Below the pieces are notes generated by a model, which worked only from the letters and a program-made list of their open reading frames with translations, was not told the origin of the DNA and did not search any database. The position numbers and the translations under genes were made by a program. 25,077 nt of DNA from a virus: UHGV virus genome UHGV-0139735. One strand, 5' to 3'. This document shows positions 1 to 13,722 of the stretch, piece after piece (position 1 is the first letter of the stretch; every line of letters begins with the position of its first letter).

Positions 1-49
1 TTAGCAAGACTGTGTACATTTGTACACAATTGCAGAGAGAGGAAATGAC

Positions 50-586
50 ATGCGTCGCGCTAACGATCCGCAACGGCGAGAAAAAATTATCCAGGCCACG
101 CTGGAGGCGGTGAAACTTTACGGAATACATGCTGTTACACACCGCAAAATTGCTGCCCTTGCCGGGGTGCCGTTGGGATCGATGACCTACTATTTTTCAG
201 GAATTGATGAGTTGTTGCTGGAGGCGTTCAGCCGTTTTACTGAGATCATGTCCCGGCAATATCAGGCATTTTTTAGCGATGTTAGTGATGCTCCAGGCGC
301 ATGCCAGGCTATCACCGATATGATCTACAGCTCACAGGTCGCAACGCCGGATAATATGGAGCTGATGTACCAGCTCTACGCGCTGGCTAGCCGAAAACCG
401 CTCTTAAAAACGGTAATGCAAAACTGGATGCAGCGCAGTCAACAAACGCTCGAACAATGGTTTGAACCCGGAACCGCCCGCGCGCTTGATGCGTTTATTG
501 AGGGGATGACGCTGCATTTTGTCACCGACCGTAAGCCGCTATCACGCGAGGAGATTTTGAGGATGGTTGAGAGGATTGCTGGGTAG
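50..586 (+). CDS. rcdA: TetR-family transcriptional regulator (host gene, RcdA/YbjK-like)
   Basis: From the ATG at 50 the product is 178 aa beginning [40 protein letters not shown], an N-terminal HTH typical of TetR regulators. The length and N-terminus match my recollection of E. coli RcdA. The ORF-track start at 20 is probably an upstream extension. Confidence 0.6.
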
Positions 587-602
587 TAGATAAATTTCAG
601 GC

Positions 603-631
603 AACAAAAAACCCATTTATGTAAATGGGTT
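603..631 (-). terminator. Rho-independent terminator hairpin (10-bp perfect stem, T-run on the minus strand)
   Basis: aacccattta-tg-taaatgggtt at 610-631, preceded on the plus strand by an A-run (606-609) that is the U-tract for minus-strand transcripts. It lies downstream of the minus-strand ORF 737-1006 and may also stop the plus-strand regulator gene. Confidence 0.55.
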
Positions 632-636
632 AATGG

Positions 637-667
637 AAACAATAAGTTAGAGTAAAAACAATAAGTT
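637..667. repeat. 12-bp perfect direct repeat aaacaataagtt at 637-648 and 656-667
   Basis: Read directly from the sequence in the intergenic region at the host/prophage junction. Possible recombinase arm-type or IHF-type site; function unknown. Confidence 0.3.
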
Positions 668-736
668 GGGTTGGTGGTCAGTGGTGGTTATTACGGGGTA
701 ATGCCAACCGCTGCCGCCACTTTGTCGCCACTTGTT

Positions 737-1006
737 TTACCTTAGACGCCATGGGCCCCTATCTTCAATCTGTTCGACTAACCCCTCCTCTTCTAGTTCA
801 CGCAATAGTGCAACAACCCAATATTGTTGGTTCGAACTTGTGGCTTTCCGTTTTTCTCCCCAATCGAGGCCGCTTAGACGAAATACCTCAGCTTGCTTAA
901 CGCCGTTGCCGTTTTTTTGGGCATCTGGGTGAGTTTTAAGTACGGATAAAGCCAATTCTTTGGCTCTGTTACGCAATTCCGCTCCCTGATGCTGAAACTT
1001 ATTCAT
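737..1006 (-). CDS. Hypothetical 89-aa protein at the prophage/host junction
   Basis: Intact ORF with a downstream terminator (603-631). No family recognised by eye. Unclear whether it belongs to the host, the prophage or a remnant of an earlier element. Confidence 0.45.
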   Translation of the reverse strand: MNKFQHQGAELRNRAKELALSVLKTHPDAQKNGNGVKQAEVFRLSGLDWGEKRKATSSNQQYWVVALLRELEEEGLVEQIEDRGPWRLR

Positions 1007-1064
1007 TGATAGTGCTCCATGTGAAAAAAAAGAATATTAGCTCAACAGGGCAAAATACGCATTT

Positions 1065-2096
1065 TCAAAAACTTGCTATTGATGTTGGTAGTGTTGCCAG
1101 CGGATTAAACCGTAATGCAGTTTCCAGGTGATCCGGTGCTAGATGTGCGTAACGCATAGTCATTTTTATGTCGTGATGTCCGAGGATTTTTTGCAAAGCA
1201 AGGATATTTCCACCCGACATCATAAAATGCGCCGCAAACGTATGGCGCAGAACGTGTGTCAGTTGACCGCGAGGGAGCACAATAGACGTTTTTTCCATCA
1301 CGGATAAAAATTGAAAATAGCAGTCTGTGAAGAAATTGAACCCATCGAGCGCCATGATCTCTTCGTAAAGCTCTTTACTGATAGGGATGCTTCTGTTTTT
1401 CTTCCCCTTCGTTCTGACAAAGGTAATTCGGTATTTGGTCACCTGTGAGCGGGTAAGATTTACGGCTTCACGCCAGCGTGCGCCTGTGCTTAAGCATATC
1501 TTAACTACCAGTGCCAGAATTGGGTCCTGACGTTTGCAATCAGCCAGCAATTCAACAATCTGCTCATGGGTAAGCCATGCCATCTCTTTTTCTGCGATGG
1601 TGAATTTTCGCATGTTCTCCAGTGGGTTCGGATACGACCATTCGCCCAGACGGGATAGTTCGCTAAAAACACTACTTAGATAGCTTTGCTCCAGGTTAAT
1701 GGTGACCGGGCTTGCTCCTTTCTTCCATTTCTCGCTGAAGTAGATCTCGCCTGTCAGGCGTTTATCTCGATAGTGGGCAAACATTTTAGAGGTGAGATCA
1801 GTTGCAAGGGGATTGCCCAGAGCGTCAACCATCAACAGCAGTTTGTCATAGACATGCTGCCCAGCTGTCAGAGATTTACCATGTAGTTTGAACCATAGCT
1901 CAATCACGTCTTTCAATGTCCGACGATCCACTGATTCGCCCAGCCAGGGCTTTGCTTCGGTTTCTTCCATCGTGTGACGCTCAAAAGCCAGAGCTTCGCC
2001 TTTGGTGGCGAATTGTTTACGCACACGACGTCCACTACGTCCGGCGGGGTAACATTCGCAAAGCCATTTTCCTGTGGTGAGTTTTCGTACTGCCAT
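1065..2096 (-). CDS. int: Tyrosine site-specific integrase (P2/186 Int family)
   Basis: 343-aa product starting MAVRKLTTGKWLCECYP, with the C-terminal catalytic box ...LRHTFAAHFMMSGGNILALQKILGHHDIKMTMRYAHL (R, HxxR and Y motifs). The ORF-track start at 2174 adds 26 unsupported residues. Position is next to the repressor as in P2/186. Confidence 0.9.
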   Translation of the reverse strand: MAVRKLTTGKWLCECYPAGRSGRRVRKQFATKGEALAFERHTMEETEAKPWLGESVDRRTLKDVIELWFKLHGKSLTAGQHVYDKLLLMVDALGNPLATDLTSKMFAHYRDKRLTGEIYFSEKWKKGASPVTINLEQSYLSSVFSELSRLGEWSYPNPLENMRKFTIAEKEMAWLTHEQIVELLADCKRQDPILALVVKICLSTGARWREAVNLTRSQVTKYRITFVRTKGKKNRSIPISKELYEEIMALDGFNFFTDCYFQFLSVMEKTSIVLPRGQLTHVLRHTFAAHFMMSGGNILALQKILGHHDIKMTMRYAHLAPDHLETALRFNPLATLPTSIASF

Positions 2097-2282
2097 AAAA
2101 AATGCCCTCCAGTAGAGAGCATTTTTACTGTATGTATAACCAGTGTCAATGTATGAAATCCTGCGACCATACATCTCACTGAAGCCATAATGAAGTTAGC
2201 TATTTTTTGCTATGTGAGTATGTGACTTTTGCGGTTAGCCTGCGGCTCATTGTTATATTAGGCGCAGATATAAAAGCAAAAT

Positions 2283-2489: not shown

Positions 2490-3065
2490 TTACCTAACGT
2501 ACTTAATTGTTAAACTTATAATTTTCCCAATTATTTCAACATCTTCTATCTTGCACTCGAAGGCTCTGTTTCCACCCTCGACGAAGATTCTTCCACCGGG
2601 TAAACGAGTAATGTCACGGATCGTTATTTCGCCATCAATACTTATTACCCATTTACCATCACGTATATCATCAAATTCCTTATCACAAATAAATTCAGAA
2701 TTATTATCTGTGATTACAAAAAGATTCTTGAATGCCGACGGTAGAAATTCTCTATCGAAAATATAAAAACCGTCTTCACACAAGGCCCCATCAGATAATA
2801 CATATTTAGCAACTTCCATAGTATTTGTATTACCTGAAGTTTGCTTTGAACCATGCCCGGTTGTGAGCCAATTAAGTGAGGTGCCTGTTTCAAGGGCGCA
2901 CTGGATTACCCATTCTGCTGGGAATGAGTCACGCATGTAGCGTGTGGCGAGTGTACTTTTAGAGATTCCTAAATGATCGCACAACGCCTGTCGAGTCTTG
3001 AATCCATAAGCTTCTACCATGCGCTCTATAGCGCCTCGTCCGCCTTTCTCCAAATTCATGGTCAC
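2490..3065 (-). CDS. cI: CI-type immunity repressor (186 CI-like: N-terminal HTH plus C-terminal oligomerisation domain)
   Basis: 191 aa with an N-terminal HTH (QALCDHLGISKSTLATRYMRD). Its size matches 186 CI (~192 aa) rather than P2 C (99 aa). It is divergent from the apl/cII operon and upstream of int. Confidence 0.8.
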   Translation of the reverse strand: MTMNLEKGGRGAIERMVEAYGFKTRQALCDHLGISKSTLATRYMRDSFPAEWVIQCALETGTSLNWLTTGHGSKQTSGNTNTMEVAKYVLSDGALCEDGFYIFDREFLPSAFKNLFVITDNNSEFICDKEFDDIRDGKWVISIDGEITIRDITRLPGGRIFVEGGNRAFECKIEDVEIIGKIISLTIKYVR

Positions 3066-3083: not shown

Positions 3084-3112
3084 TTGACGATTTCACTGTG
3101 CGATCGTATGTT
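3084..3112 (+). promoter_or_regulatory. Candidate early lytic promoter (pR-like): TTGACG, 17-bp spacer, TATGTT
   Basis: -35 TTGACG at 3084-3089 and -10 TATGTT at 3107-3112, lying between the divergent repressor and apl genes. Flanking inverted repeats (GTGAAC at 3071-3076 and GTTCAC at 3119-3124) are possible operator half-sites. Confidence 0.45.
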
Positions 3113-3432: not shown

Positions 3433-3948
3433 TTGACCATGTTTGATTACCAAGTTTCCAAACATCCACATTTTGATGAAGCCTGTCGTGCATTCGCATT
3501 GCGCCACAACCTGGTGCAACTGGCAGAACGTGCTGGCATGAATGTGCAGATTCTGCGGAACAAGTTGAACCCAGCTCAACCTCATTTATTAACCGCACCA
3601 GAAATCTGGCTGCTTACCGATCTGACTGAAGATTCAACGCTGGTAGATGGTTTTCTGGCTCAGATTCACTGCCTGCCATGCGTACCGATTAATGAGGTGG
3701 CAAAAGAGAAACTGCCACATTACGTCATGAGTGCAACCGCAGAGATCGGGCGTGTTGCTGCAGGTGCGGTATCTGGCGATGTAAAAACCAGTGCAGGTCG
3801 TCGTGATGCTATCAGCAGCATTAACTCTGTAACACGACTGATGGCGTTGGCTGCTGTTTCATTGCAGGCCCGTTTACAGGCTAACCCTGCGATGGCGAGT
3901 GCAGTTGATACCGTGACTGGCCTCGGTGCTTCATTCGGTTTGCTGTGA
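3433..3948 (+). CDS. cII: CII-like lysogeny-establishment regulator (186 CII-like)
   Basis: 171 aa (186 CII is ~169 aa) with an N-terminal HTH-like region, directly downstream of apl as in 186. Confidence 0.7.
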
Positions 3949-3955
3949 GGTGCTT

Positions 3956-4156
3956 ATGCTGACGAAAGAACCATCATTTGCATCGCTGCTGGTAAAGCAA
4001 AGCCCGGCAATGCACTACGGTCACGGCTGGATCATGGGTGAGGATGGAAAACGCTGGCATCCGTGCCGTTCACAAGATGAATTGCTGGCAGAACTATCTA
4101 CGAAAAAACGGGGGAACAAATGGCTATTGAAGGCGCTGCGGCGACTGTTCCATTAA
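3956..4156 (+). CDS. Hypothetical early protein (66 aa)
   Basis: ATG at 3956 preceded by GAGGTG; in the early operon between cII and A. The ORF-track start at 3926 overlaps cII. Confidence 0.5.
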   Translation: MLTKEPSFASLLVKQSPAMHYGHGWIMGEDGKRWHPCRSQDELLAELSTKKRGNKWLLKALRRLFH

Positions 4157-4461
4157 GACCCGGTGAACGCCTGAATGGACTTAATCATATTGCGGAGTTA
4201 AGGGCGAAAGTTTTTGGTTTGAATATTGAGTCAGAGCTTGAGCGGTTTATTAAAGATATGCGTGATCCACGGGATATCAATAATGAACAAAATAAACGGG
4301 CACTGGCTGCCATATTCTTTATGGCAAAAATTCCAGCTGAACGTCATAGCATCAGCATTAATGAGCTGACCACTGACGAAAAGCGGGAGTTGATTAAAGC
4401 AATGAATCATTTTCGTGCAGTGGTGAGCTTATTTCCCAGACGGCTAACCATGCCGAATTAA
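4120..4461 (+). CDS. Hypothetical early protein (113 aa)
   Basis: ATG at 4120 preceded by GGGGGAA. Overlaps the previous ORF by 37 nt. Confidence 0.55.
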   Translation: MAIEGAAATVPLRPGERLNGLNHIAELRAKVFGLNIESELERFIKDMRDPRDINNEQNKRALAAIFFMAKIPAERHSISINELTTDEKRELIKAMNHFRAVVSLFPRRLTMPN

Positions 4462-4528
4462 CCAACTAATGAAATTAATGGCGTAAACCCGCCGGGCATC
4501 CCTTTATCTAAATTCAGGAGAATTGCTT

Positions 4529-4762
4529 ATGCGTAATATTGAAACCCTCACGACCAAAACCGGACCGGATGATGCAGGTCTTAATCTTTTACTGACAGAG
4601 GCTCGTCTGGAAGAACGCCGGGCAAGGGCTGAAGCAATGGCTGCTCGCCTCGATAGCCTGGCGTGTCATATCACCTCCCGCCAGCTAAACCACGTCGAAG
4701 CGGCAGAACTGCTGCGTGTGACTGCTGAAGCAATCCAGAACGAAGCGCAGGAGATCCACTGA
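4529..4762 (+). CDS. Hypothetical early protein (77 aa, predicted helical)
   Basis: ATG at 4529 preceded by CAGGAG. The stop overlaps the start of the next gene (ATGA-type coupling). Confidence 0.55.
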   Translation: MRNIETLTTKTGPDDAGLNLLLTEARLEERRARAEAMAARLDSLACHITSRQLNHVEAAELLRVTAEAIQNEAQEIH

Positions 4763-4989
4763 TGGCTGATGCAATGGATCTCGTACAGCAGCGCGTTGAA
4801 GAAGAACGCCAACGCCATATCCGTGCTGCCCGTGCCAAAACGCCGGGCGTGTCCCGCGTGCTTTGCGTTGAGTGTGAAGCGCCAATTCCGCCAGCACGCC
4901 GCCGTGCCATTCCGGGTGTGCAGCTTTGCATTACCTGTCAGGAAATCGCAGAGCTGAAAGGCAAACATTACAACGGAGGTGCTGTATGA
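4762..4989 (+). CDS. TraR/DksA-family C4 zinc-finger protein
   Basis: 75 aa with a CxxC-(17)-CxxC signature (CVECEAPIPPARRRAIPGVQLCITCQ), typical of phage TraR-like proteins. Confidence 0.7.
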   Translation: MADAMDLVQQRVEEERQRHIRAARAKTPGVSRVLCVECEAPIPPARRRAIPGVQLCITCQEIAELKGKHYNGGAV

Positions 4990-5840
4990 GCACCATCCTG
5001 AAATGGGCAGGAAATAAAACCGCCATAATGTCCGAACTGAAAAAGCATCTTCCTGCTGGCCCGCGACTGGTTGAACCTTTCGCGGGTTCCTGTGCAGTGA
5101 TGATGGAGACGGATTACCCCAGCTATCTTGTTGCGGATATTAATCCTGATTTAATCAACCTCTATAAAAAGGTTGCTGCTGATTGTGAGGCGTTTATATC
5201 TCGTGCCAGAGCTTTATTTGAGGAAGCAAACAGGGAGGTGGCTTATTACAACATAAGGCAGGAGTTTAATTACTCCACTGAAATTACTGATTTCATGAAA
5301 GCGGTATATTTCCTGTATCTCAATCGTCACGGTTACCGTGGTTTATGTCGCTATAACAAGAGCGGGCATTTCAACATTCCCTACGGTAATTATAAAAATC
5401 CGTATTTCCCTGAAAAAGAAATTCGCGCATTTGCAGAGAAAGCCCAGCGGGCAACGTTTATCTGCGCCAGCTTTGATGAAACGCTGGCGATGTTGAAGGT
5501 GGGGGATGTGGTGTATTGCGATCCGCCTTATGACGGTACGTTTTCCGGCTATCACACTGATGGTTTCACTGAAGATGATCAGTATCACCTGGCATCCATT
5601 CTTGAACATCGGTCATCAGAAGGACATCCGGTCATTGTTTCTAACAGTAACACGTCTTTGACCCGGTCCCTTTATCGTAATTTCACTCACCACTACATCA
5701 GGGCGAAACGCAGCATCGGCGTTGCAGCGGGGGAGGGAAAATTTGCAACAGAGATGATTGCCACTAAATCTGCTAATTGGTTTAGTGCCGATTTTAGTAG
5801 GGGACGTGACTCTACTGTTATTTTCGGGGTGCAAGTGTGA
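4986..5840 (+). CDS. DNA N6-adenine methyltransferase (Dam family)
   Basis: From the ATG at 4986 (RBS GGAGG): N-terminal LKWAGNK motif and catalytic DPPY motif (VYCDPPYDG). The ORF-track start at 4926 is an upstream extension. Confidence 0.85.
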
Positions 5841-6667
5841 AAGAAATGCACCACGGAATTCATCATTTCCATGGGACGCCTGTCTGGGGAAGTGCTGGCG
5901 ACGTTCATCGTATTGCGGTGAGCGGAGCTGGCGCTTTCGTCTCCTATGTACGACCAGATCAGATTGCGGCGTCCATTCAGCACGCTCAGGTCGTCGGCAT
6001 TGATAACGGCGCATTTTCTGCATGGGTGCGTGGGCTAAAAATTAACTGGAGTGATTTTTATAAATGGCTCCTGAACTATTACCACCATCCTAAGGTCGCT
6101 TTTTTTGTCATTCCTGATGTTGTGGACGGAGGTGAACGTGACAATGATGCCCTGATAAACGAAGTTCCGAAAATGTTCTACGGGAAGGCAACTCCCGTCT
6201 GGCATCTGCACGAGTCAATCGATCGGCTTATCGAGCTATGTCGTGAATGGCCTCGTGTCTGCTTTGGATCGTCTGGTGAATATGCGGCTATCAGAACTGC
6301 GCACTGGCATCGTCGTATGCAGGACGCTTTTGAAGCAATTTATTGCCGACACAATTTCAAAACAGCTGTTCATGGTTTGCGCATGCTTGACGGTCGTGTG
6401 TTGGGAAATTACCCACTGGCGACTGCCGACAGTACAAATCTTGCCTGCAATGTCCCCAAATTTAATAGCAAATATCCTGAGCTGACGCGGGCTATTCAGG
6501 AGGCTGAGTATTCGCGCAATCTGACGGAAAAGGAGCTGAAAGCTGTCATTCTGAAAAACCGTTGCGCAATTTTAAAAGGTGCAATTGAAGCTGTTCGCCC
6601 ACCTTCAGTTTCTGATTGGCTGTCGAATGGTTTGCAGCCTTCACAGCTCGAACTGGAGATTGCGTAA
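5837..6667 (+). CDS. Hypothetical protein (~276 aa) translationally coupled to the methyltransferase; possible DNA-modification enzyme (weak, unverified TGT/DpdA-like motifs)
   Basis: GTG at 5837 overlaps the Dam stop; an alternative ATG lies at 5846. Contains [12 protein letters not shown], which resembles the DSGGF active-site strand of tRNA-guanine transglycosylases; this is eye-level similarity only. Confidence 0.5.
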
Positions 6668-9009
6668 TGAACTACAGCTATTCCTGGAATGCTGAGAAAA
6701 AAGCAATCAATCCTTACGTAGAGACGGAAGAGCAATCTTCAGTTTCTGCGCTTTCAAACCTGATCGCTCTGTACGCTGCCGATAACGAGCAGGAACAGCT
6801 GCGCCGCGAGGCACTGAGTGATCAGGTCTGGGAGCGTTATTTCTTTAATGAATCCCGTGATCCTGTCCAGCGCGAAATGGAGCAGGATAAGCTCATTAGT
6901 CGGGCAAAGCTGGCGCATGAGCAGCAGCGTTTTAATCCAGATATGGTCATTCTGGCGGACGTTAATGCCCAGCCTTCCCATATCAGCAAGCCACTGATGC
7001 AACGTATTGAATACTTCAGCAGCCTGGGCAGGCCAAAGGCTTATTCCCGCTATTTGCGTGAGACGATTAAGCCATGTCTGGAACGGCTGGAGCATGTACG
7101 CGACTGTCAGCTATCCACTTCTTTTCGCTTTATGGCAAGCCATGAAGGGCTGGACGGCCTGCTGATCCTGCCTGAAATGAGTCAGGATCAGGTGAAACGC
7201 CTGTCCACCCTGGTAGCTGCGCATATGAGCATGTGCCTTGATGCAGCTTGTGGCGATTTGTATGTCACCGATGACGTTAAGCCAGAAGAAATCCGCAAGA
7301 CATGGGAAAAGGTGGCAGCGGAAACCCTGCGTCTGGATGTCATCCCGCCTGCGTTTGAGCAACTCCGCCGGAAAAGAAACCGCCGTAAACCCGTGCCCTA
7401 TGAACTCATTCCGGGTTCGCTGGCGCGTATGTTGTGCGCTGACTGGTGGTACCGGAAATTATGGAAGATGCGTTGCGAATGGCGGGAAGAGCAGTTGCGT
7501 GCTGTCTGCCTGGTCAGCAAAAAAGCATCTCCCTATGTCAGCTATGAAGCCGTGATGCATAAACGTGAGCAGCGCCGTAAGTCGCTGGAGTTTTTTCGTT
7601 CTCATGAACTGGTGAACGAAGACGGCGACACGCTGGACATGGAGGATGTGGTAAACGCCAGCAGCAGCAACCCTGCGCATCGCCGCAATGAGATGATGGC
7701 CTGTGTTAAAGGCCTGGAGCTTATCGCGGAAATGCGCGGTGACTGCGCCGTTTTCTACACCATCACCTGTCCGTCACGTTTCCATTCCACGCTAAATAAT
7801 GGCAGGCCCAACCCAACTTGGACAAATGCGACGGTAAGACAAAGCAGTGATTATCTGGTCGGCATGTTTGCTGCATTTCGTAAGGCGATGCACAAAGCCG
7901 GATTGCGGTGGTATGGCGTGCGGGTGGCTGAGCCGCATCATGACGGTACAGTTCACTGGCACCTGTTGTGTTTTATGCGCAAAAAAGACCGCCGCGCCAT
8001 CACTGCATTACTGCGTAAGTTTGCCATCCGTGAAGACCGCGAGGAACTGGGCAATAACACTGGGCCGCGCTTTAAGTCTGAGTTGATTAACCCGCGCAAA
8101 GGTACGCCAACAAGCTACATCGCGAAATACATCAGTAAGAACATTGACGGGCGTGGTCTGGCTGGCGAGATCAGCAAGGAAACGGGGAAATCCCTGCGTG
8201 ATAATGCTGAATACGTTAATGCCTGGGCGTCTCTGCATCGTGTTCAGCAATTCCGCTTCTTTGGCATTCCGGGGCGTCAGGCTTACCGTGAACTGCGATT
8301 GCTGGCTGGTCAGGCGGCAAGGCAACAGGGGGACAAAAAAGCAGGTGCGCCGGTACTGGATAACCCGCGCCTTGATGCCATCCTGGCTGCTGCTGATGCT
8401 GGTTGTTTTGCCACCTACATCATGAAGCAGGGCGGCGTACTGGTTCCCCGCAAATATCACCTCATCAGAACCGCTTATGAAATCAACGAAGAGCCGACCG
8501 CCTATGGCGATCACGGCATTCGTATTTATGGCATCTGGTCACCTATTGCAGAGGGCAAGATCTGCACTCATGCCGTGAAGTGGAAAATGGTTCGTAAGGC
8601 CGTTGATGTTCAGGAGGCGGCAGCCGACCAGGGCGCTTGCGCCCCTTGGACTCGTGGCAATAACTGTCCCCCTGTTGAAAATTTGAACCAATCAGGGGGC
8701 GATTTACCAGAAGCCAGTGGGCCGGAGTCGCTGCCGGATCTTCATAATCTGAGCGCGAAGGAACGACGGGAGCTGACGGCGCGGCTGAGATTGGTAAAAC
8801 CTAAGCGGCGGAAAGGGTACAAACAGCAGATTAGCAATCATCAGCGCCAGCAGCTTGATGCTGAACTGAGGTCTAGGGGGTTCGATGCGAGTGATACCGA
8901 GGTGGATCTGCTTTTGCGTGGTGGCAGTATCCCGTCCGGGGCCGGGCTGCGTTTGTTCTATCGAAACCAGCGCCTGCAGGAAGATGATAAATGGCGGCAG
9001 TGGTACTAA
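6667..9009 (+). CDS. A: Rolling-circle replication initiator, P2 gpA family (HUH endonuclease)
   Basis: HUH motif ([10 protein letters not shown]) and two-tyrosine motif ([10 protein letters not shown]) as in P2 A protein. ATG at 6667 overlaps the upstream stop (TAATG); the ORF-track start at 6616 is possible but less likely. Confidence 0.85.
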
Positions 9010-9043
9010 TGTGAGAGTATTTTATATTCATATTCAAAAATGC

Positions 9044-9073
9044 CAGCCTAACAAATCAGGCTGACATTTTTTT
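9044..9073. terminator. Bidirectional rho-independent terminator between convergent genes
   Basis: Stem cagcct / aggctg with an 8-nt loop, followed by TTTTTTT on the plus strand and an A/T-rich tract on the minus strand. Sits between the A stop (9009) and the minus-strand gene end (9081). Confidence 0.6.
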
Positions 9074-9080
9074 ACTTACT

Positions 9081-9539
9081 CTATTTAGTTTTTTCAATCA
9101 TAGTGCTTTCGGCTTTTGAATATACACTATTAATAGTGGTGATTTTTGTAGTTAATGCTATACAAACTAGACTCAGAAGTAAGACACCAATTGATATTGT
9201 ATTGTTGCTGAGTATTATATGTAGACAAATAGAATAAATTGCAACGATGACTATTGCTACGAAAACAAAGATTGCCATTAAATTATGTGCTTTGATGTAG
9301 TCCTCAGGGGTTAATATGTAGCTTATGTTTATGATTATAAATAAAATTAAAAATGCTCCCCCAATCCATTTGGGTAGGGCTGTTTCTTTTTTTGATACTG
9401 CAGGTGTGGTTCTTGGGATCGATTCTACGAAGGATTTAAGATTTCCCATGTCAGTATTGTTTAATGCTGCACTTTCTGCTTCGAATTTTGAAACAGTGCC
9501 ATCAGGAAGGGTTGTAGTCCAGCTTATTTTTCCTGTCAT
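9081..9539 (-). CDS. Small integral membrane protein (152 aa: ~55-aa soluble N-terminus plus three predicted TM helices); cargo gene
   Basis: Hydrophobic segments WIGGAFLILFIIINISYIL, LMAIFVFVAIVIVAIYSICLHIIL and ISIGVLLLSLVCIALTT. Its start overlaps the upstream stop (ATGA). Strongly AT-rich versus the backbone. Confidence 0.65.
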   Translation of the reverse strand: MTGKISWTTTLPDGTVSKFEAESAALNNTDMGNLKSFVESIPRTTPAVSKKETALPKWIGGAFLILFIIINISYILTPEDYIKAHNLMAIFVFVAIVIVAIYSICLHIILSNNTISIGVLLLSLVCIALTTKITTINSVYSKAESTMIEKTK

Positions 9540-9910
9540 ACAACATCCCTTATTCTGAATATTCTATTAAAATCAATATCAACAGCAGAGTTCGACCACT
9601 CACTCTTTTGATTATCTTTAATTAGAATTGCTTTGTTCTCGTCAAAGATTATATTTGTACCACTAAACTCAATATGAGATAGGTCTCCTCTAAATATTTT
9701 TTGCTCAACGCTTTTGAATGCATCTTTTAATGATGCACACTCTTTTCTGAATAATGGTTTGGGGCTGTAAGTCCCTAAGTTTATAACTATTACGCCACTA
9801 CCATCTTTAGCAGGGTGAATGGAGAAAGATAGCGCTAATCCGTGATAGTGGGATTGTATTTTCTTCATTAATTTACGAACGTAATCATCATACCGCTTTC
9901 TATATATCAT
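9536..9910 (-). CDS. Hypothetical soluble protein (124 aa); first gene of the two-gene cargo operon
   Basis: Intact AT-rich ORF translationally coupled to the membrane-protein gene. No family recognised by eye. Confidence 0.6.
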   Translation of the reverse strand: MIYRKRYDDYVRKLMKKIQSHYHGLALSFSIHPAKDGSGVIVINLGTYSPKPLFRKECASLKDAFKSVEQKIFRGDLSHIEFSGTNIIFDENKAILIKDNQKSEWSNSAVDIDFNRIFRIRDVV

Positions 9911-10074
9911 TTTTTTCTTAATGGTTAGTTGTTTTTCGTATATTACAATACTAATAAATATATTGTCGATTCAAATAAAACGTTGTAGCCAAGCGGAAGA
10001 ATTTTAGTTTACGGATGGTTGTTTTTTGATCTCCATAGCCGAAGGCAATCTGAACTATAGTGATCATAAAAGTG

Positions 10075-10116
10075 TTTACATTCATGGAACTACGCATATA
10101 CTGTATATGTGTACAG
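10075..10116 (+). promoter_or_regulatory. SOS-regulated promoter: -35 TTTACA, 16-bp spacer, -10 TATACT, with an overlapping LexA box
   Basis: taCTGTATATGTGTACAGtg at 10101-10116 fits the LexA consensus CTGT-N8-ACAG and overlaps the -10 element and start site. It lies 33 bp upstream of the ATG at 10149. Confidence 0.7.
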
Positions 10117-10148
10117 TGCTTTCTGTGTGTTTGGTGATAGGAGGGAAG

Positions 10149-10337
10149 ATGCAAGACTATTTTTTGGAGTCGTTGAAGCTCCAGCGCATTGATTTTTTTG
10201 TCAAGCTTGTGGCGGCTAGTGAGTGTGATGATGAAGAGAAGCGACTGGCTATCCAGTGGGTTTCTGAGTTAACGGATGAGCTGATGGCAAAGATTCGTGC
10301 TCATGAATACAACCGCTCAATGGATCTTCCCAGTTAA
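10149..10337 (+). CDS. SOS-inducible small acidic protein (62 aa); candidate antirepressor-type (Tum-like role) gene
   Basis: Strong RBS (TAGGAGGG) 4 nt upstream of the ATG at 10149, directly downstream of the LexA-box promoter. The longer ORF-track version from 10026 would span the promoter itself. Confidence 0.6.
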   Translation: MQDYFLESLKLQRIDFFVKLVAASECDDEEKRLAIQWVSELTDELMAKIRAHEYNRSMDLPS

Positions 10338-10415
10338 CAGCAGGAACGTTGCTGGCGTGAGAACTAGCTTCTTACGTCAGCAAGGTTAAACAACGAGTAC
10401 AACGAGGCGTTAGCC

Positions 10416-10682
10416 ATGGGTAAATCCAACAGCAAATTCCAGACCGTTTATGAGGGGCAGGCGCTTGAACGTGACGAACTTGGCGGATGGGTTTTGTTTC
10501 AGCGTCGTGTAGAGTATGGCGGCAAGTACTGGATGGGAATAACCATGGATGATGTGTTTTTGTTTGGCTCCGATCATCCTGTATCAGGTAGTGAGGCGAT
10601 GGTCTTCATCATTGATTATGAGGGCGAGCAGCTCAGACGGTCTTTACCCGTTGGATACACCCCACAAATGCCGCTTTTCTGA
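10416..10682 (+). CDS. Hypothetical protein (88 aa), probably co-transcribed with the SOS-inducible ORF
   Basis: Backbone-like GC content; no terminator between the two ORFs; a terminator follows at 10750-10774. Confidence 0.5.
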   Translation: MGKSNSKFQTVYEGQALERDELGGWVLFQRRVEYGGKYWMGITMDDVFLFGSDHPVSGSEAMVFIIDYEGEQLRRSLPVGYTPQMPLF

Positions 10683-10749
10683 CAACCGGCTGGGTGCATG
10701 TCTATGCTGCATGAGATCGCATGATCGTTTGAGGATCGTTTTCGCTGAG

Positions 10750-10774
10750 GCCCGCCAGAACTGGCGGGCTTTTG
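10750..10774 (+). terminator. Rho-independent terminator (GCCCGCCAG-aa-CTGGCGGGC followed by TTTT)
   Basis: Perfect 9-bp GC-rich inverted repeat followed by a T-tract, 68 bp after the 88-aa ORF stop. Confidence 0.7.
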
Positions 10775-10818
10775 CTTATGTCATGCAGGTGCATGAAAAT
10801 CGCTCCATAAAGCGGGCA

Positions 10819-10837
10819 GGCGTGGCGGGGATACGAG
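10819..10837. other. Candidate cos (cohesive-end) site
   Basis: GGCGTGGCGGGGATACGAG followed by CGCGCGCTG. Its first 13 nt match the 19-nt cohesive end of 186 as I recall it (GGCGTGGCGGGGAAAGCAT; P2 is GGCGAGGCGGGGAAAGCAC). The recalled sequences were not checked against a reference. Confidence 0.4.
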
Positions 10838-10968
10838 CGCGCGCTGGGAGGTATAAGAATGAAGTACAATTAACTTCACTTTGTTGAGTAAAATGCTATA
10901 AGAATAATGCAAATTATTGAGTCCCATTAGTTCAAAACTTAGGGATATCTTATGTGAAAGGAGGTTAT

Positions 10969-12654
10969 ATGTTAGATAAATTGATTTTTAATTCAGGAAG
11001 TAATCCAACATCTAAATCTTCATTATCGGTTGACTTGACTCCATTGACAATTTTTGTGGGGCCGAATAATAGTGGTAAATCTAGAGCTTTAATCGATATA
11101 GAAAATCAACTGACAACCCGAAATGCAGCGCAGGGAGAAGTAATAAAACAGATATTAATCAAACCACTTTCTGAGGATGAAGCAAAAAAGGAAATTGAAT
11201 CTTTACAAGTTGAGCCAAACCAGGATGAAAAGCATGCGGGGCATGTTGTTTTATCTAGGCTAAACCTCCGTGGTGAAGGAATATCTAGGATTCTAGTGTA
11301 TTTGGATGGAATGTTAAGAGAATTCCAGCAACCCAATGAATTAAATCGGGAGCATCTATATCAATATTACTCGTTGCTGACTCTAAGGTTGGATGGTAGA
11401 AGTCGACTTTCCTTAACTTCAAGTCAAGGTTCATCCGATTTACAAGGAGAACCTACGAATAACCTTTCATTTCTTTTTAAAAATAATAAAGCAAGGATGG
11501 AGCTAAGAGATATCGTTTTTGATGCTTTCGGGAAGTATCTTGTTATTGATCCAACAAATATAGGTTATCTTAGAATTCGTCTTTCTGAGCGCGCTCCTGA
11601 GACTGAACAAGAAGAAAGAGGTTGGGATGAAAAGTCAGTGCTTTTTCATTCAAAAGCGTCATTGATTACAGAGGCTAGCGATGGTGTTAATGCTTTTGTT
11701 GGGATGATGATTTCGCTGATAGTTGGCTCACCAAAGGTGACTCTAATTGATGAGCCGGAAGCTTTTTTACATCCATCCTTATGCTCAAAGTTAGGAAAGG
11801 AAATATCTAGGATTAGTGCTCATAGTAATAAAAATGTGTTTATTTCAACGCATAGCGCTAATTTTTTAATGGGTTGTGTTCAAGGTAAAGTGCCATTGAA
11901 TATAGTTAGGCTTACTTTTGATGGTAAATCTGGTACGTCTAGATTACTAACAAAGGAACAATTGACGCCGCTCATGAGAAATCCGTTATTAAGATCTATT
12001 GGTGTGCTAAACGCATTGTTTTATAATTACGTTGTCGTTACTGAAGCGGATGCAGATAGGGCATTTTATCAAGAGATTAATGAGCGCTTATTGGCTGCTG
12101 GAGATCCTCGGGGTATTGAGGGATGCCTGTTTTTGAATGCTCAAAACAAACAAACTGTTTGGGATATAGTAAAACCCCTTCGTGAGCTAGGTATTCCCTG
12201 CGTTGGAGTGGTAGATATCGATATATTGAAGGAGGGAGGAGTTGTATGGAAAAAACCAATGCTTGGAGCTTTTTTTCCAGAAATGAAGCATGAAACTTTA
12301 GGTTTGGAAAGACAAAAGCTTTTTCAAGCCTTCAAAAATACGAATAAAAATATGAAGACAGATGGGGGCCTCTCCTTGTTATCGGGTTCAGATAAAACCG
12401 CCTGCTCTGAGTTTTTTAAATCCCTTTCAGATTATGGGGTTTTTGTCGTTCCAACGGGCGAGATCGAGTCTTGGTTGCAAAATCTTGAAATAGGTCGAGG
12501 AAAGAATACTTGGTTAACAAGTATTTTCGAGAAGATGGGGGATGATCCTAATGATGAATCATATGTGAAGCCATCTGAAGGTGATGTTTGGGATTTTATT
12601 GGGAATATAAAGCACTGGTTGGTTAACCCTGAAAGGAAGGGTATTCCCGAGTGA
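10969..12654 (+). CDS. OLD-family ABC-type ATPase with C-terminal TOPRIM nuclease domain (P2 Old-like anti-phage defence protein)
   Basis: 561 aa from the ATG at 10969 (RBS AAAGGAGG). Walker A GPNNSGKS, Walker B/D-loop VTLIDEPEAFLHPS, H-loop ISTHSAN, and C-terminal Toprim-like acidic motifs VVVTEADAD and VGVVDID. AT-rich relative to the backbone. Confidence 0.7.
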   Translation: MLDKLIFNSGSNPTSKSSLSVDLTPLTIFVGPNNSGKSRALIDIENQLTTRNAAQGEVIKQILIKPLSEDEAKKEIESLQVEPNQDEKHAGHVVLSRLNLRGEGISRILVYLDGMLREFQQPNELNREHLYQYYSLLTLRLDGRSRLSLTSSQGSSDLQGEPTNNLSFLFKNNKARMELRDIVFDAFGKYLVIDPTNIGYLRIRLSERAPETEQEERGWDEKSVLFHSKASLITEASDGVNAFVGMMISLIVGSPKVTLIDEPEAFLHPSLCSKLGKEISRISAHSNKNVFISTHSANFLMGCVQGKVPLNIVRLTFDGKSGTSRLLTKEQLTPLMRNPLLRSIGVLNALFYNYVVVTEADADRAFYQEINERLLAAGDPRGIEGCLFLNAQNKQTVWDIVKPLRELGIPCVGVVDIDILKEGGVVWKKPMLGAFFPEMKHETLGLERQKLFQAFKNTNKNMKTDGGLSLLSGSDKTACSEFFKSLSDYGVFVVPTGEIESWLQNLEIGRGKNTWLTSIFEKMGDDPNDESYVKPSEGDVWDFIGNIKHWLVNPERKGIPE

Positions 12655-12661
12655 GTTTATT

Positions 12662-12684
12662 GAGCCGCTTTAGCGGCTCTTTTC
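12662..12684 (+). terminator. Terminator hairpin (gagccgc-ttta-gcggctc followed by TTTTC) between the convergent OLD-like and Q genes
   Basis: 7-bp perfect stem and T-run directly after the OLD-like stop codon; only 36 bp separate the two convergent stop codons. Confidence 0.65.
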
Positions 12685-12690
12685 ATATTC

Positions 12691-13722
12691 CTATGCAAGG
12701 TTATATTCATTAAATTGCATTATTGGCTCCTTTATCCATTCATTTACTTCTTGAAGCCTTTTTTGCAATGGAATTAGCTCATTACGGACAAAGACCCTGC
12801 TGGCTTTCTCCACATCCCCAAATCCCCCGACATTATTTGGCATTATCCCCATCATTTGTGGCGGCACACGATGCGCAGCCATCATGTCATCCCGGCTCAC
12901 GTTCTTGATATTCAGAAACTCATCCTTCGCCGCGACTTCTGACAACGGGATGATCTGAAGCCCGTCCTTTTTGCCGTTAGGCGAGTACATAAACAGGTTG
13001 CGGAAGTTGCCAGGGCCTTTGGCGCTTTTCATCGCATTGCGGAGGTTGTTCACATCCTCCTGGTTCTGCGCGGCATCGGTCATGTACATGATGAAGCCTG
13101 CATGACTGCCGTTAATGTAATACTTCCGGCGGAACAGCGTGGCGGACTCGTTGAGCAGGGCCGACGGAATGGCAGAAAGATAACCTGGCAGGCCGTAGAT
13201 CTCCTGGTTGATGTCAGGTTCCATCAGATGAAAAATGCTGCCTTTCGTGAACTGATACGGCTGGGTTGTCATACCGTATTGCACAAACCAGTAGGTATCC
13301 AGGTCTAACCCGCGTCGGGTGTATTTTGCCAGCGCAGGCTCAAGGGCTATAACTTCACCGAATCGGTTCGTGCGTTTCTCCAGGTAGGCGTTACCAAATA
13401 CCAGATAGTCCTGCACAAAACGCGAAAAAGCCTGTTGGCTGAGCAGCGGATGAGGGATATAGGTACTGGTCAGAATGTTGCACTTTACTGCAATCGGGGA
13501 ACTGTGATGCACGGCAGCCCGGAAGGTGCGCGCCAGTCCGTCAAAACTTACGGGTGGCTCATACCAGCGATCCGTCTGTACGCATTCCACATAGTCCAGC
13601 AGTTCGCGGCGGTCCAGTACAGGAATGGGATCACCAAAGCTGAAAGCTTCGGCTGAAGTTTGATTTTTATGCTGGCTCCGTTTCGTCGCAGCAGCGCGGT
13701 TTTTCTTACTCTTTCCCATCAA
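12691..13722 (-). CDS. Q: Portal protein (P2 gpQ)
   Basis: 343 aa (P2 Q is ~344 aa), located downstream of and overlapping the terminase ATPase gene, in P2 order. Confidence 0.85.
   Translation of the reverse strand: MMGKSKKNRAAATKRSQHKNQTSAEAFSFGDPIPVLDRRELLDYVECVQTDRWYEPPVSFDGLARTFRAAVHHSSPIAVKCNILTSTYIPHPLLSQQAFSRFVQDYLVFGNAYLEKRTNRFGEVIALEPALAKYTRRGLDLDTYWFVQYGMTTQPYQFTKGSIFHLMEPDINQEIYGLPGYLSAIPSALLNESATLFRRKYYINGSHAGFIMYMTDAAQNQEDVNNLRNAMKSAKGPGNFRNLFMYSPNGKKDGLQIIPLSEVAAKDEFLNIKNVSRDDMMAAHRVPPQMMGIMPNNVGGFGDVEKASRVFVRNELIPLQKRLQEVNEWIKEPIMQFNEYNLA

Follow-up and report, generated by a model that had tools for sequence, protein, structure and literature searches.

A putative singleton-clade DpdA encoded between Dam and the replication initiator of a P2/186-like Escherichia coli prophage

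UHGV virus genome UHGV-0139735, a stretch of 25,077 nucleotides (nt) referred to here as the window, represents a P2/186-like prophage that is inserted beside rcdA in E. coli. The insertion site was placed from window positions 20-2174 and from positions 1567-3260 of L096, a prophage locus of E. coli APEC O78. Its rightward early operon carries, directly upstream of the gene for the gpA replication initiator, a Dam-family adenine methyltransferase gene followed by an open reading frame (ORF) of 276 residues, whose identity is the main subject of this work. The three genes and the zinc-finger ORF that precedes them are contiguous: the stop codon of the zinc-finger ORF overlaps the Dam ATG (ATGA), the Dam stop codon overlaps the GTG of the 276-residue ORF (GTGA), and the TAA of the latter overlaps the gpA ATG at position 6667 (TAATG). 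Reading of the ORFs and of these junctions confirmed a first-pass annotation made from the nucleotide sequence alone, which had placed both genes in the early operon upstream of gpA, had noted the overlapping stop and start codons and had recognized the LKWAGNK and DPPY motifs of the methylase. An alternative ATG at 5846, located 5 nt past the Dam stop codon, yields the 273-residue protein recorded by RefSeq (WP_001420002.1), and with either start, GTG 5837 or ATG 5846, the two genes are tightly coupled.

Searches of Pfam, NCBIfam, PADLOC and PDB sequences did not name the 276-residue protein, which matches phrog_887 ("queuine tRNA-ribosyltransferase") over its full length at 2.4e-96. A tblastn search of phage genomes with this protein returned 105 records. 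The Salmonella P2-like phages SI22 and SEN1 encode proteins that are 75-76% identical to it (76% for SEN1 gp38, YP_009217891), followed by the DpdA of Pantoea phage MED16 (55%), the proteins of BTP1, SfI and SPN3UB (~42% over the first 206 residues, which make up the barrel) and the DpdA of Salmonella phage 7-11 (34%). Hutinet et al. 2019 include SEN1 gp38, 7-11, BTP1, SfI and SPN3UB in their Supplementary Data 1, where SEN1 figures among the DpdA-only phages, and MED16 DpdA shares a branch with SEN1 gp38 and SW9 gp39 (PMC8306585). The family that the first-pass annotation had left unassigned is hence a known one, the gamma-proteobacterial "singleton DpdA" cluster, which Hutinet et al. 2019 list as their third group (SEN1 gp38, SW9 gp39, MED16 gp38, 7-11, BTP1, SfI and SPN3UB), and what is new is a member in a P2-like prophage of E. 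coli, a host that sets it apart from the listed singleton DpdA phages. All of the latter encode DpdA only, without genes for the synthesis of 7-cyano-7-deazaguanine (preQ0). In SEN1 the gene lies directly 5' of gpA, as in the window, but its upstream neighbor encodes a 92-residue hypothetical protein instead of Dam. The last 70 residues of the window protein have no counterpart in BTP1-type relatives.

To relate this family to a DpdA of demonstrated activity, we aligned a broad family profile (A3; 47 diverse members, 26-59% identical to the query) with the DpdA family of phage 9g using hhalign. The two profiles align with a probability of 98.9% (E 1.6e-17); the alignment spans 176 columns and keeps every motif residue in register, and a narrow family profile gives a probability of 87.6% against the same target. 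Of the comparison with transglycosylase families proposed in the first-pass annotation, the part concerning PHROG 887 and the 9g family was thus borne out, whereas HMMER searches with the Pfam model of tRNA-guanine transglycosylase (TGT) and with the PADLOC DpdA models were negative. The Pfam model (PF01702) has no match in the window protein or in any of 57 family members, 9g DpdA included, and the PADLOC DpdA models do not match the 276-residue protein even at E<=10, compared to 2e-8 for E. coli Tgt and 0.02 for 9g DpdA. The validated 9g family has no precomputed Pfam domain and fails the same HMMER tests, and we found no model in Pfam-A or NCBIfam that detects phage DpdA proteins, which accounts for the "hypothetical protein" annotation in RefSeq. 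The link to cellular TGT consequently rests on structure and on published HHpred results, and not on sequence-level matches obtained here.

This is a genuine gene that evolves under purifying selection, with a ratio of nonsynonymous to synonymous substitution rates of 0.03-0.07 (~0.05) against orthologues that are 80-84% identical, although the synonymous rate is saturated and the figure is rough. Of 5426 complete E. coli genomes, 103 contain the exact gene, at 106 places and annotated throughout as a hypothetical protein, and numerous prophages of Enterobacter, Citrobacter, Salmonella, Serratia and Klebsiella carry the DpdA gene as well. Given this distribution and the lack of a Pfam or NCBIfam model, assigning a name to the gene is useful. 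One of the 106 E. coli occurrences is on a plasmid rather than a chromosome, and genome ERP001 harbors two copies.

Analysis of the motifs shared with 9g DpdA indicates that the 276-residue protein carries a putative TGT-type catalytic set. In the hhalign alignment, DNGAF (D56) pairs with DSGAF (D72) of 9g DpdA, WHLHES (H123, E126) with FHAGE (H141, E144), FGSSG (G144) with LGG (G162), HGLRML (H179) with HGFGIT (H196) and ADS (D198-S199) with CDS (D215-S216). In a joint alignment of 57 sequences, down to 16% identity, residues D56, A59, H123, H179, D198 and S199 are invariant and E126 is at least 90% conserved. The eye-level resemblance of DNGAF to the DSGGF active-site motif of TGT and DpdA enzymes, on which the first-pass annotation had relied, therefore stands, with D56 invariant. 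The spacing between aspartate and phenylalanine in DNGAF is the same as that of D95 and F99 in the DpdA of S. Montevideo, of which the D95 and D256 mutants are inactive (PMC10164549), and the predicted role of D198 as nucleophile derives from D256, whose mutation abolishes activity. The third TGT aspartate is ambiguous, and could be either D94, invariant within the singleton clade, or D97, which lies opposite the invariant D114 of 9g DpdA. With either residue, the sequence would provide the three aspartates of TGT enzymes (acid/base, base recognition and nucleophile). DpdA2 proteins lack the histidine that marks DpdA and DpdA1 (9g H196) (PMC6884629), and the window protein has it as H179. By its spacing, this residue may also correspond to H226 of Cap10, which partners the nucleophile in an H226/D248 pair (bioRxiv 10.1101/2025.04.06.647259).

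To complement these alignments, we predicted the structure of the protein with AlphaFold2 from a 33-sequence alignment. The resulting model (predicted local distance difference test score 88.4, predicted template modelling score 0.85) consists of eight β-strands alternating with helices, in agreement with the earlier guess of a barrel enzyme, and each conserved residue is located where a strand ends on its C-terminal side or just past that point, the arrangement known from the active sites of TIM barrels. The protein is thus predicted to adopt the (β/α)8 TIM-barrel fold of the TGT type. Foldseek against viral predicted structures (BFVD) returned 33 matches at E<=1e-3, which include a protein of Vibrio phage nt-1; where these matches bear an informative name, it is almost always queuine tRNA-ribosyltransferase. 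Against the PDB the search was non-specific, with pyruvate kinase and CitE barrels on top. The cysteines of the protein (135, 142, 170, 204 and 243) do not form a CxCxxC motif and only 78 residues follow the nucleophile, so that the protein lacks the Zn site and the 128-residue Ins8 insertion of bacterial DpdA. Since the 9g DpdA consensus and Cap10 also lack it, the CxCx2C...H Zn site defines TGT and bacterial DpdA, but not phage DpdA. Beyond the barrel, a basic C-terminal tail present in close relatives only, with helices predicted at residues 214-221, 231-251, 258-263 and 269-275, is a candidate DNA-contact or specificity element; most of 150 listed cluster representatives match the family profile at positions 6-205 only.

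Table 1. Coordinates of the early-operon genes, neighboring prophage genes and predicted DpdA motifs in the window.
Feature	Position	Strand	Remarks
TetR-family ORF (rcdA)	20-586		Left end; integration neighbor of the prophage
Integrase	1065-2174	-	
186-type CI repressor	2490-3065	-	
CII	3433-3948	+	Rightward early operon
Fil	3926-4156	+	Rightward early operon
DUF5347 ORF	4120-4461	+	Rightward early operon
phrog_128 ORF	4523-4762	+	Rightward early operon
TraR/DksA-type C4 zinc-finger ORF, 75 residues	4762-4989	+	PF01258 4.4e-11; phrog_54 1.8e-30
Dam-family N6-adenine DNA methyltransferase, 284 residues	4986-5840	+	ATG to TGA
276-residue ORF, putative singleton phage DpdA (homologue of DNA guanine / 7-deazaguanine transglycosylase)	5837-6667	+	GTG to TAA
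DNGAF, end of β3	6002-6016	+	D56, predicted general acid/base; F60, predicted base-stacking gate
IPDVVDG loop after β4	6110-6130	+	Predicted base-recognition acid, D94 or D97
WHLHES, end of β5	6200-6217	+	H123, E126
HGLRML, end of β7	6371-6388	+	H179
ADSTN, end of β8	6425-6439	+	D198, predicted catalytic nucleophile
Basic helical C-terminal tail, residues 206-276	6452-6664	+	Close relatives only
gpA rolling-circle replication initiator/nickase	6667-9009	+	PF05840 5.6e-128; phrog_91 8.9e-287

Other known relatives of this barrel differ from the window protein in their genetic surroundings. The DpdA (DpdA1) proteins of the Queuovirinae phages 9g and CAjan share a homologous barrel in which DSGAF/DNGAF, H-x2-E, the conserved histidine and the D-S motif are in register with the window protein, and the CxCxxC zinc motif is absent from both 9g DpdA and the window protein; the two are only 16-19% identical. 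In 9g and CAjan, folE, queD, queE and queC (with or without gat-queC) lie beside dpdA and 25-32% of G is replaced, whereas the window clade lacks these pathway genes and its tested relatives contain only traces of dADG (2'-deoxy-7-amido-7-deazaguanosine). MED16 DNA contains 354 dADG per 10^6 nucleotides (~0.13% of G), together with 633 N6-methyl-2'-deoxyadenosine (m6dA) per 10^6 nucleotides, and its authors report that dADG was without effect on the restriction enzymes tried (PMC8306585); phage 7-11 DNA contains 50 dADG per 10^6 nucleotides (~0.02% of G) (PMC6884629). The evasion of restriction through a second base modification, as put forward in the first-pass annotation, is hence not established for this clade. 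The bacterial DpdA of S. Montevideo (PDB 7UI4) has 413 residues, a Zn site (C368/C370/C373/H395) and a 128-residue Ins8 used on DNA, and requires the DpdB ATPase and the dpd cluster, all of which are absent in the window (PMC10164549). A bacterial Dpd system is recognized by a DpdA HMM (hidden Markov model) match and a dpdA-K cluster with DpdB; neither was found here, and the neighbors of the 276-residue ORF are phage genes.

The product of the gene upstream is an ordinary D12-class Dam, as indicated by its scores against PF02086 (2e-76; 257.5 bits, cut-off 22) and TIGR00571 "dam" (4.3e-95; 318 bits, cut-off 115) and by the presence of both motif I (LKWAGNK, 4998-5018) and motif IV (DPPY, 5520-5531). 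It also matches the PADLOC orphan methyltransferase model (6e-110), whereas with 288 bits against NF008152, the host Dam equivalog, it does not reach the required 441. Its membership in this family suggests specificity for GATC. Among the Dams encoded by P2-like and other temperate phages it is unusual only in its neighbor gene; the Dam region of Klebsiella phage 4LV2017 is 95.8% identical to it at the DNA level. A 36,570-bp contig of a Logan assembly (P0011) carries a 421-residue ORF that joins an N-terminal Dam domain (PF02086) to DpdA residues 46-273, and is probably a deletion or an assembly fusion that loses the first two barrel strands. Within the 3' end of the window Dam gene, ~20 nt ahead of the DpdA start, an 8-bp hairpin is followed by a T-rich run (5795-5817, plus strand), which could modulate read-through or coupling or could mean nothing, as terminator-like matches inside the early operon are no more frequent than expected by chance.

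To place the Dam and DpdA genes in a broader context, we surveyed 89 related loci (L006-L094) from genomes and viral contigs with ~4 kb of flanking sequence on each side. The DpdA gene lies directly 5' of gpA in 81 of the 89 loci, and this position is near-constant across two very different types of gpA, which are ~85-86% and ~35% identical to the window gpA. The upstream neighbor varies, and can be Dam, a TraR zinc finger or a hypothetical protein of small size. Dam is directly 5' of DpdA in 51 loci, a figure to which near-identical E. coli copies contribute 27, and is absent from the fetched flanks in 37, SEN1 included. Conversely, in Klebsiella P2-like phages such as 4LV2017 the Dam stop codon overlaps the gpA start and the DpdA gene is absent. 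Dam and DpdA thus constitute distinct cassettes that happen to be neighbors in the window, and on the basis of this survey we reject the modification module proposed in the first-pass annotation as an obligate unit. Alignment of the 4LV2017 Dam/gpA junction with both ends of the DpdA gene revealed no clear insertion scar. Searches by tblastn with the FolE, QueD, QueE and Gat-QueC proteins of 9g found no homologues in the window or in the 89 loci, and the ORFs examined with family libraries in the early operon and in the cargo region downstream of gpA are regulatory, replicative, of unknown phage function or unmatched, none being a preQ0 enzyme. The deazaguanine base must then come from the host, and E. 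coli makes preQ0 itself.

Taken together, the PHROG profile, the similarity to published DpdAs, the profile-profile alignment, the predicted fold and the invariant catalytic residues make it reasonably probable that the 276-residue protein belongs to the singleton, DpdA1-like clade of phage DpdAs and is a small TIM-barrel enzyme of the TGT superfamily expressed in the early operon with Dam and gpA. By analogy with characterized relatives, it is predicted to insert 7-deazaguanine into DNA. A target guanine in double-stranded phage DNA would be flipped into the barrel pocket, where D198 would attack C1' and displace the guanine to give a covalent intermediate between enzyme and DNA. H179 would probably position D198, as H226 does D248 in Cap10, with D56 as putative general acid/base and with the D94/D97 acidic loop and H123/E126 predicted to read the base. 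The intermediate would then be resolved by a 7-deazaguanine from the host FolE-QueD-QueE-QueC pathway, either preQ0 or possibly its amide, 7-amido-7-deazaguanine (ADG). Because the gene is under an early promoter, modification is expected after induction, on replicating phage DNA, and the outcome would be a sparse and probably sequence-specific mark on progeny phage DNA, amounting, from the ~0.02-0.13% of G seen in relatives, to a few to a few dozen sites per genome of ~33 kb (our own estimate of prophage size). Dam would act on adenine independently, being co-transcribed with DpdA here without forming an obligate pair. It has been reported that 9g DpdA alone puts preQ0 into plasmid DNA in E. 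coli, and that the singleton clade groups with phage DpdA, and not with TGT, in published networks (PMC6884629).

Several observations weigh against this assignment. HMMER searches with the single protein and with family profiles A1, A3 and A4 find no connection with the Pfam TGT model, the PADLOC DpdA models or TGT/DpdA chains of known structure, but these negatives say little and were not counted against it, since the validated 9g family fails the same tests. Alignment of the family profiles with the single E. coli Tgt sequence by hhalign likewise gave no match. We found no genetic or in vitro test in the literature tying any singleton DpdA to base insertion. The protein has neither the Zn site nor the large DNA-binding Ins8 insertion of bacterial DpdA, which moreover needs the ATPase DpdB, for which there is no counterpart in the window. 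Lastly, relatives carry trace dADG and not the preQ0 deoxynucleoside, and the phage shows no evident nitrile hydratase of the DpdC kind, which leaves an amide rather than a nitrile product unexplained. This last difficulty would disappear if singleton DpdAs were not weak bulk anti-restriction enzymes but precise writers that place ADG, taken as an intermediate of QueC and not as preQ0, directly at a handful of defined genome sites. We regard this proposal as unlikely, but it would explain the dADG-only product, the absence of a DpdC-like enzyme and the unaffected restriction enzymes. If it were true, the mark could serve replication, packaging or self-recognition, with which the near-constant site upstream of two types of gpA would fit.

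The adjacency of Dam and DpdA raises the question of whether the two are functionally dependent, with GATC methylation guiding or being required for deazaguanine insertion, or the reverse. The stop/start overlap in the window lineage, the presence of Dam next to DpdA also in a lineage of 83-84% identity and in a few 186-type loci, the 51 Dam-bearing loci as a whole, and the co-occurrence of m6dA and dADG in MED16 DNA are all consistent with such dependence. Yet about half of those loci are the near-identical E. coli copies, the 37 Dam-less loci retain DpdA, Klebsiella P2-like phages join Dam straight to gpA, and the MED16 methylase belongs to a different family and is encoded 1.2 kb away. E. 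coli hosts, in addition, are themselves Dam+. On balance, a functional dependence seems improbable.

The remaining alternatives keep the barrel but change its substrate or its activity, and all of them appear less plausible still. In one, the protein would resemble Cap10 of type IV CBASS (cyclic oligonucleotide-based antiphage signaling system; PDB 9NTN), acting as a TGT-fold protein devoid of Zn whose role would be to bind or transfer 7-amido-7-deazaguanine on a protein or another non-DNA acceptor and to interfere, for instance, with host type IV CBASS or QatABCD-type deazaguanylation. Cap10 binds a protein-linked base and works with Cap9 (QueC-like) and a CD-NTase, partners that are absent near the window DpdA; no QueC-like match was found in the DpdA flanks and PADLOC gave no match to a Cap10 system. 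We regard this role as very unlikely. It is even harder to credit that the protein is a true tRNA-guanine transglycosylase altering the queuosine status of host or phage tRNA during lytic growth. The name "queuine tRNA-ribosyltransferase" in PHROG 887 and GenBank, and a fold and catalytic residues common to TGT, speak for it, but that name was transferred on the strength of remote homology, and the protein has 276 residues against 375 in E. coli Tgt, without the Zn subdomain and the anticodon-arm insertions. The host already has Tgt, ARAGORN detects no tRNA gene in the window, and the network position of the clade (PMC6884629) is that of phage DpdA. The least probable of all these readings is another TIM-barrel activity or a non-catalytic remnant, for which the likeness to DpdA would have no bearing on function. 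The first-ranked pyruvate kinase and CitE barrels in Foldseek, the lack of a Pfam or NCBIfam model and the DNA of mycobacteriophage Orion, unmodified although this phage encodes a singleton DpdA (PMC6884629), would agree with it, but the TGT-type catalytic set is invariant in the 57-sequence alignment, purifying selection is strong and the Orion case is accounted for by a host that lacks preQ0 synthesis. A singleton-clade DpdA thus remains the preferred identification of the 276-residue protein.

The general picture of phage DNA modification is unchanged by this finding. The singleton DpdA clade is nonetheless large, with >4300 homologues and 881 clusters at 50% identity, and the two phages tested contain only trace dADG, in one of them (MED16) without a measured effect on restriction. 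An inducible P2-like prophage whose host offers que-pathway mutants, such as the queC and queD strains of E. coli MG1655 employed in PMC6884629, makes a convenient system for addressing the role of singleton DpdAs and their sensitivity to deazaguanine-sensing defenses (GrwAB-type modification-dependent nucleases).

Beyond the genes discussed so far, promoter and terminator scans of the window, both overall at chance level, revealed a promoter-like site at 3084-3112, which marks a plausible early promoter, and, immediately 3' of gpA, a terminator-like site at 9044-9063. Between gpA and the portal gene, the stretch from 9000 to 12700 has a GC content of 0.33-0.45, compared to ~0.55 in the late genes. 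It contains two minus-strand ORFs (9081-9539 and 9536-9910) with no match in Pfam or PADLOC and an ORF at 10954-12654 that encodes an Old-like ATPase with a TOPRIM domain (PF13175/PF13304/PF20469; PADLOC Old 1.3e-20). In a prophage of E. coli APEC O78 (L096) with an identical DpdA gene and the same early-operon layout, a TIR-domain protein replaces the Old-like cargo at this position, and the stretch looks like the known P2 defense-cargo hotspot.

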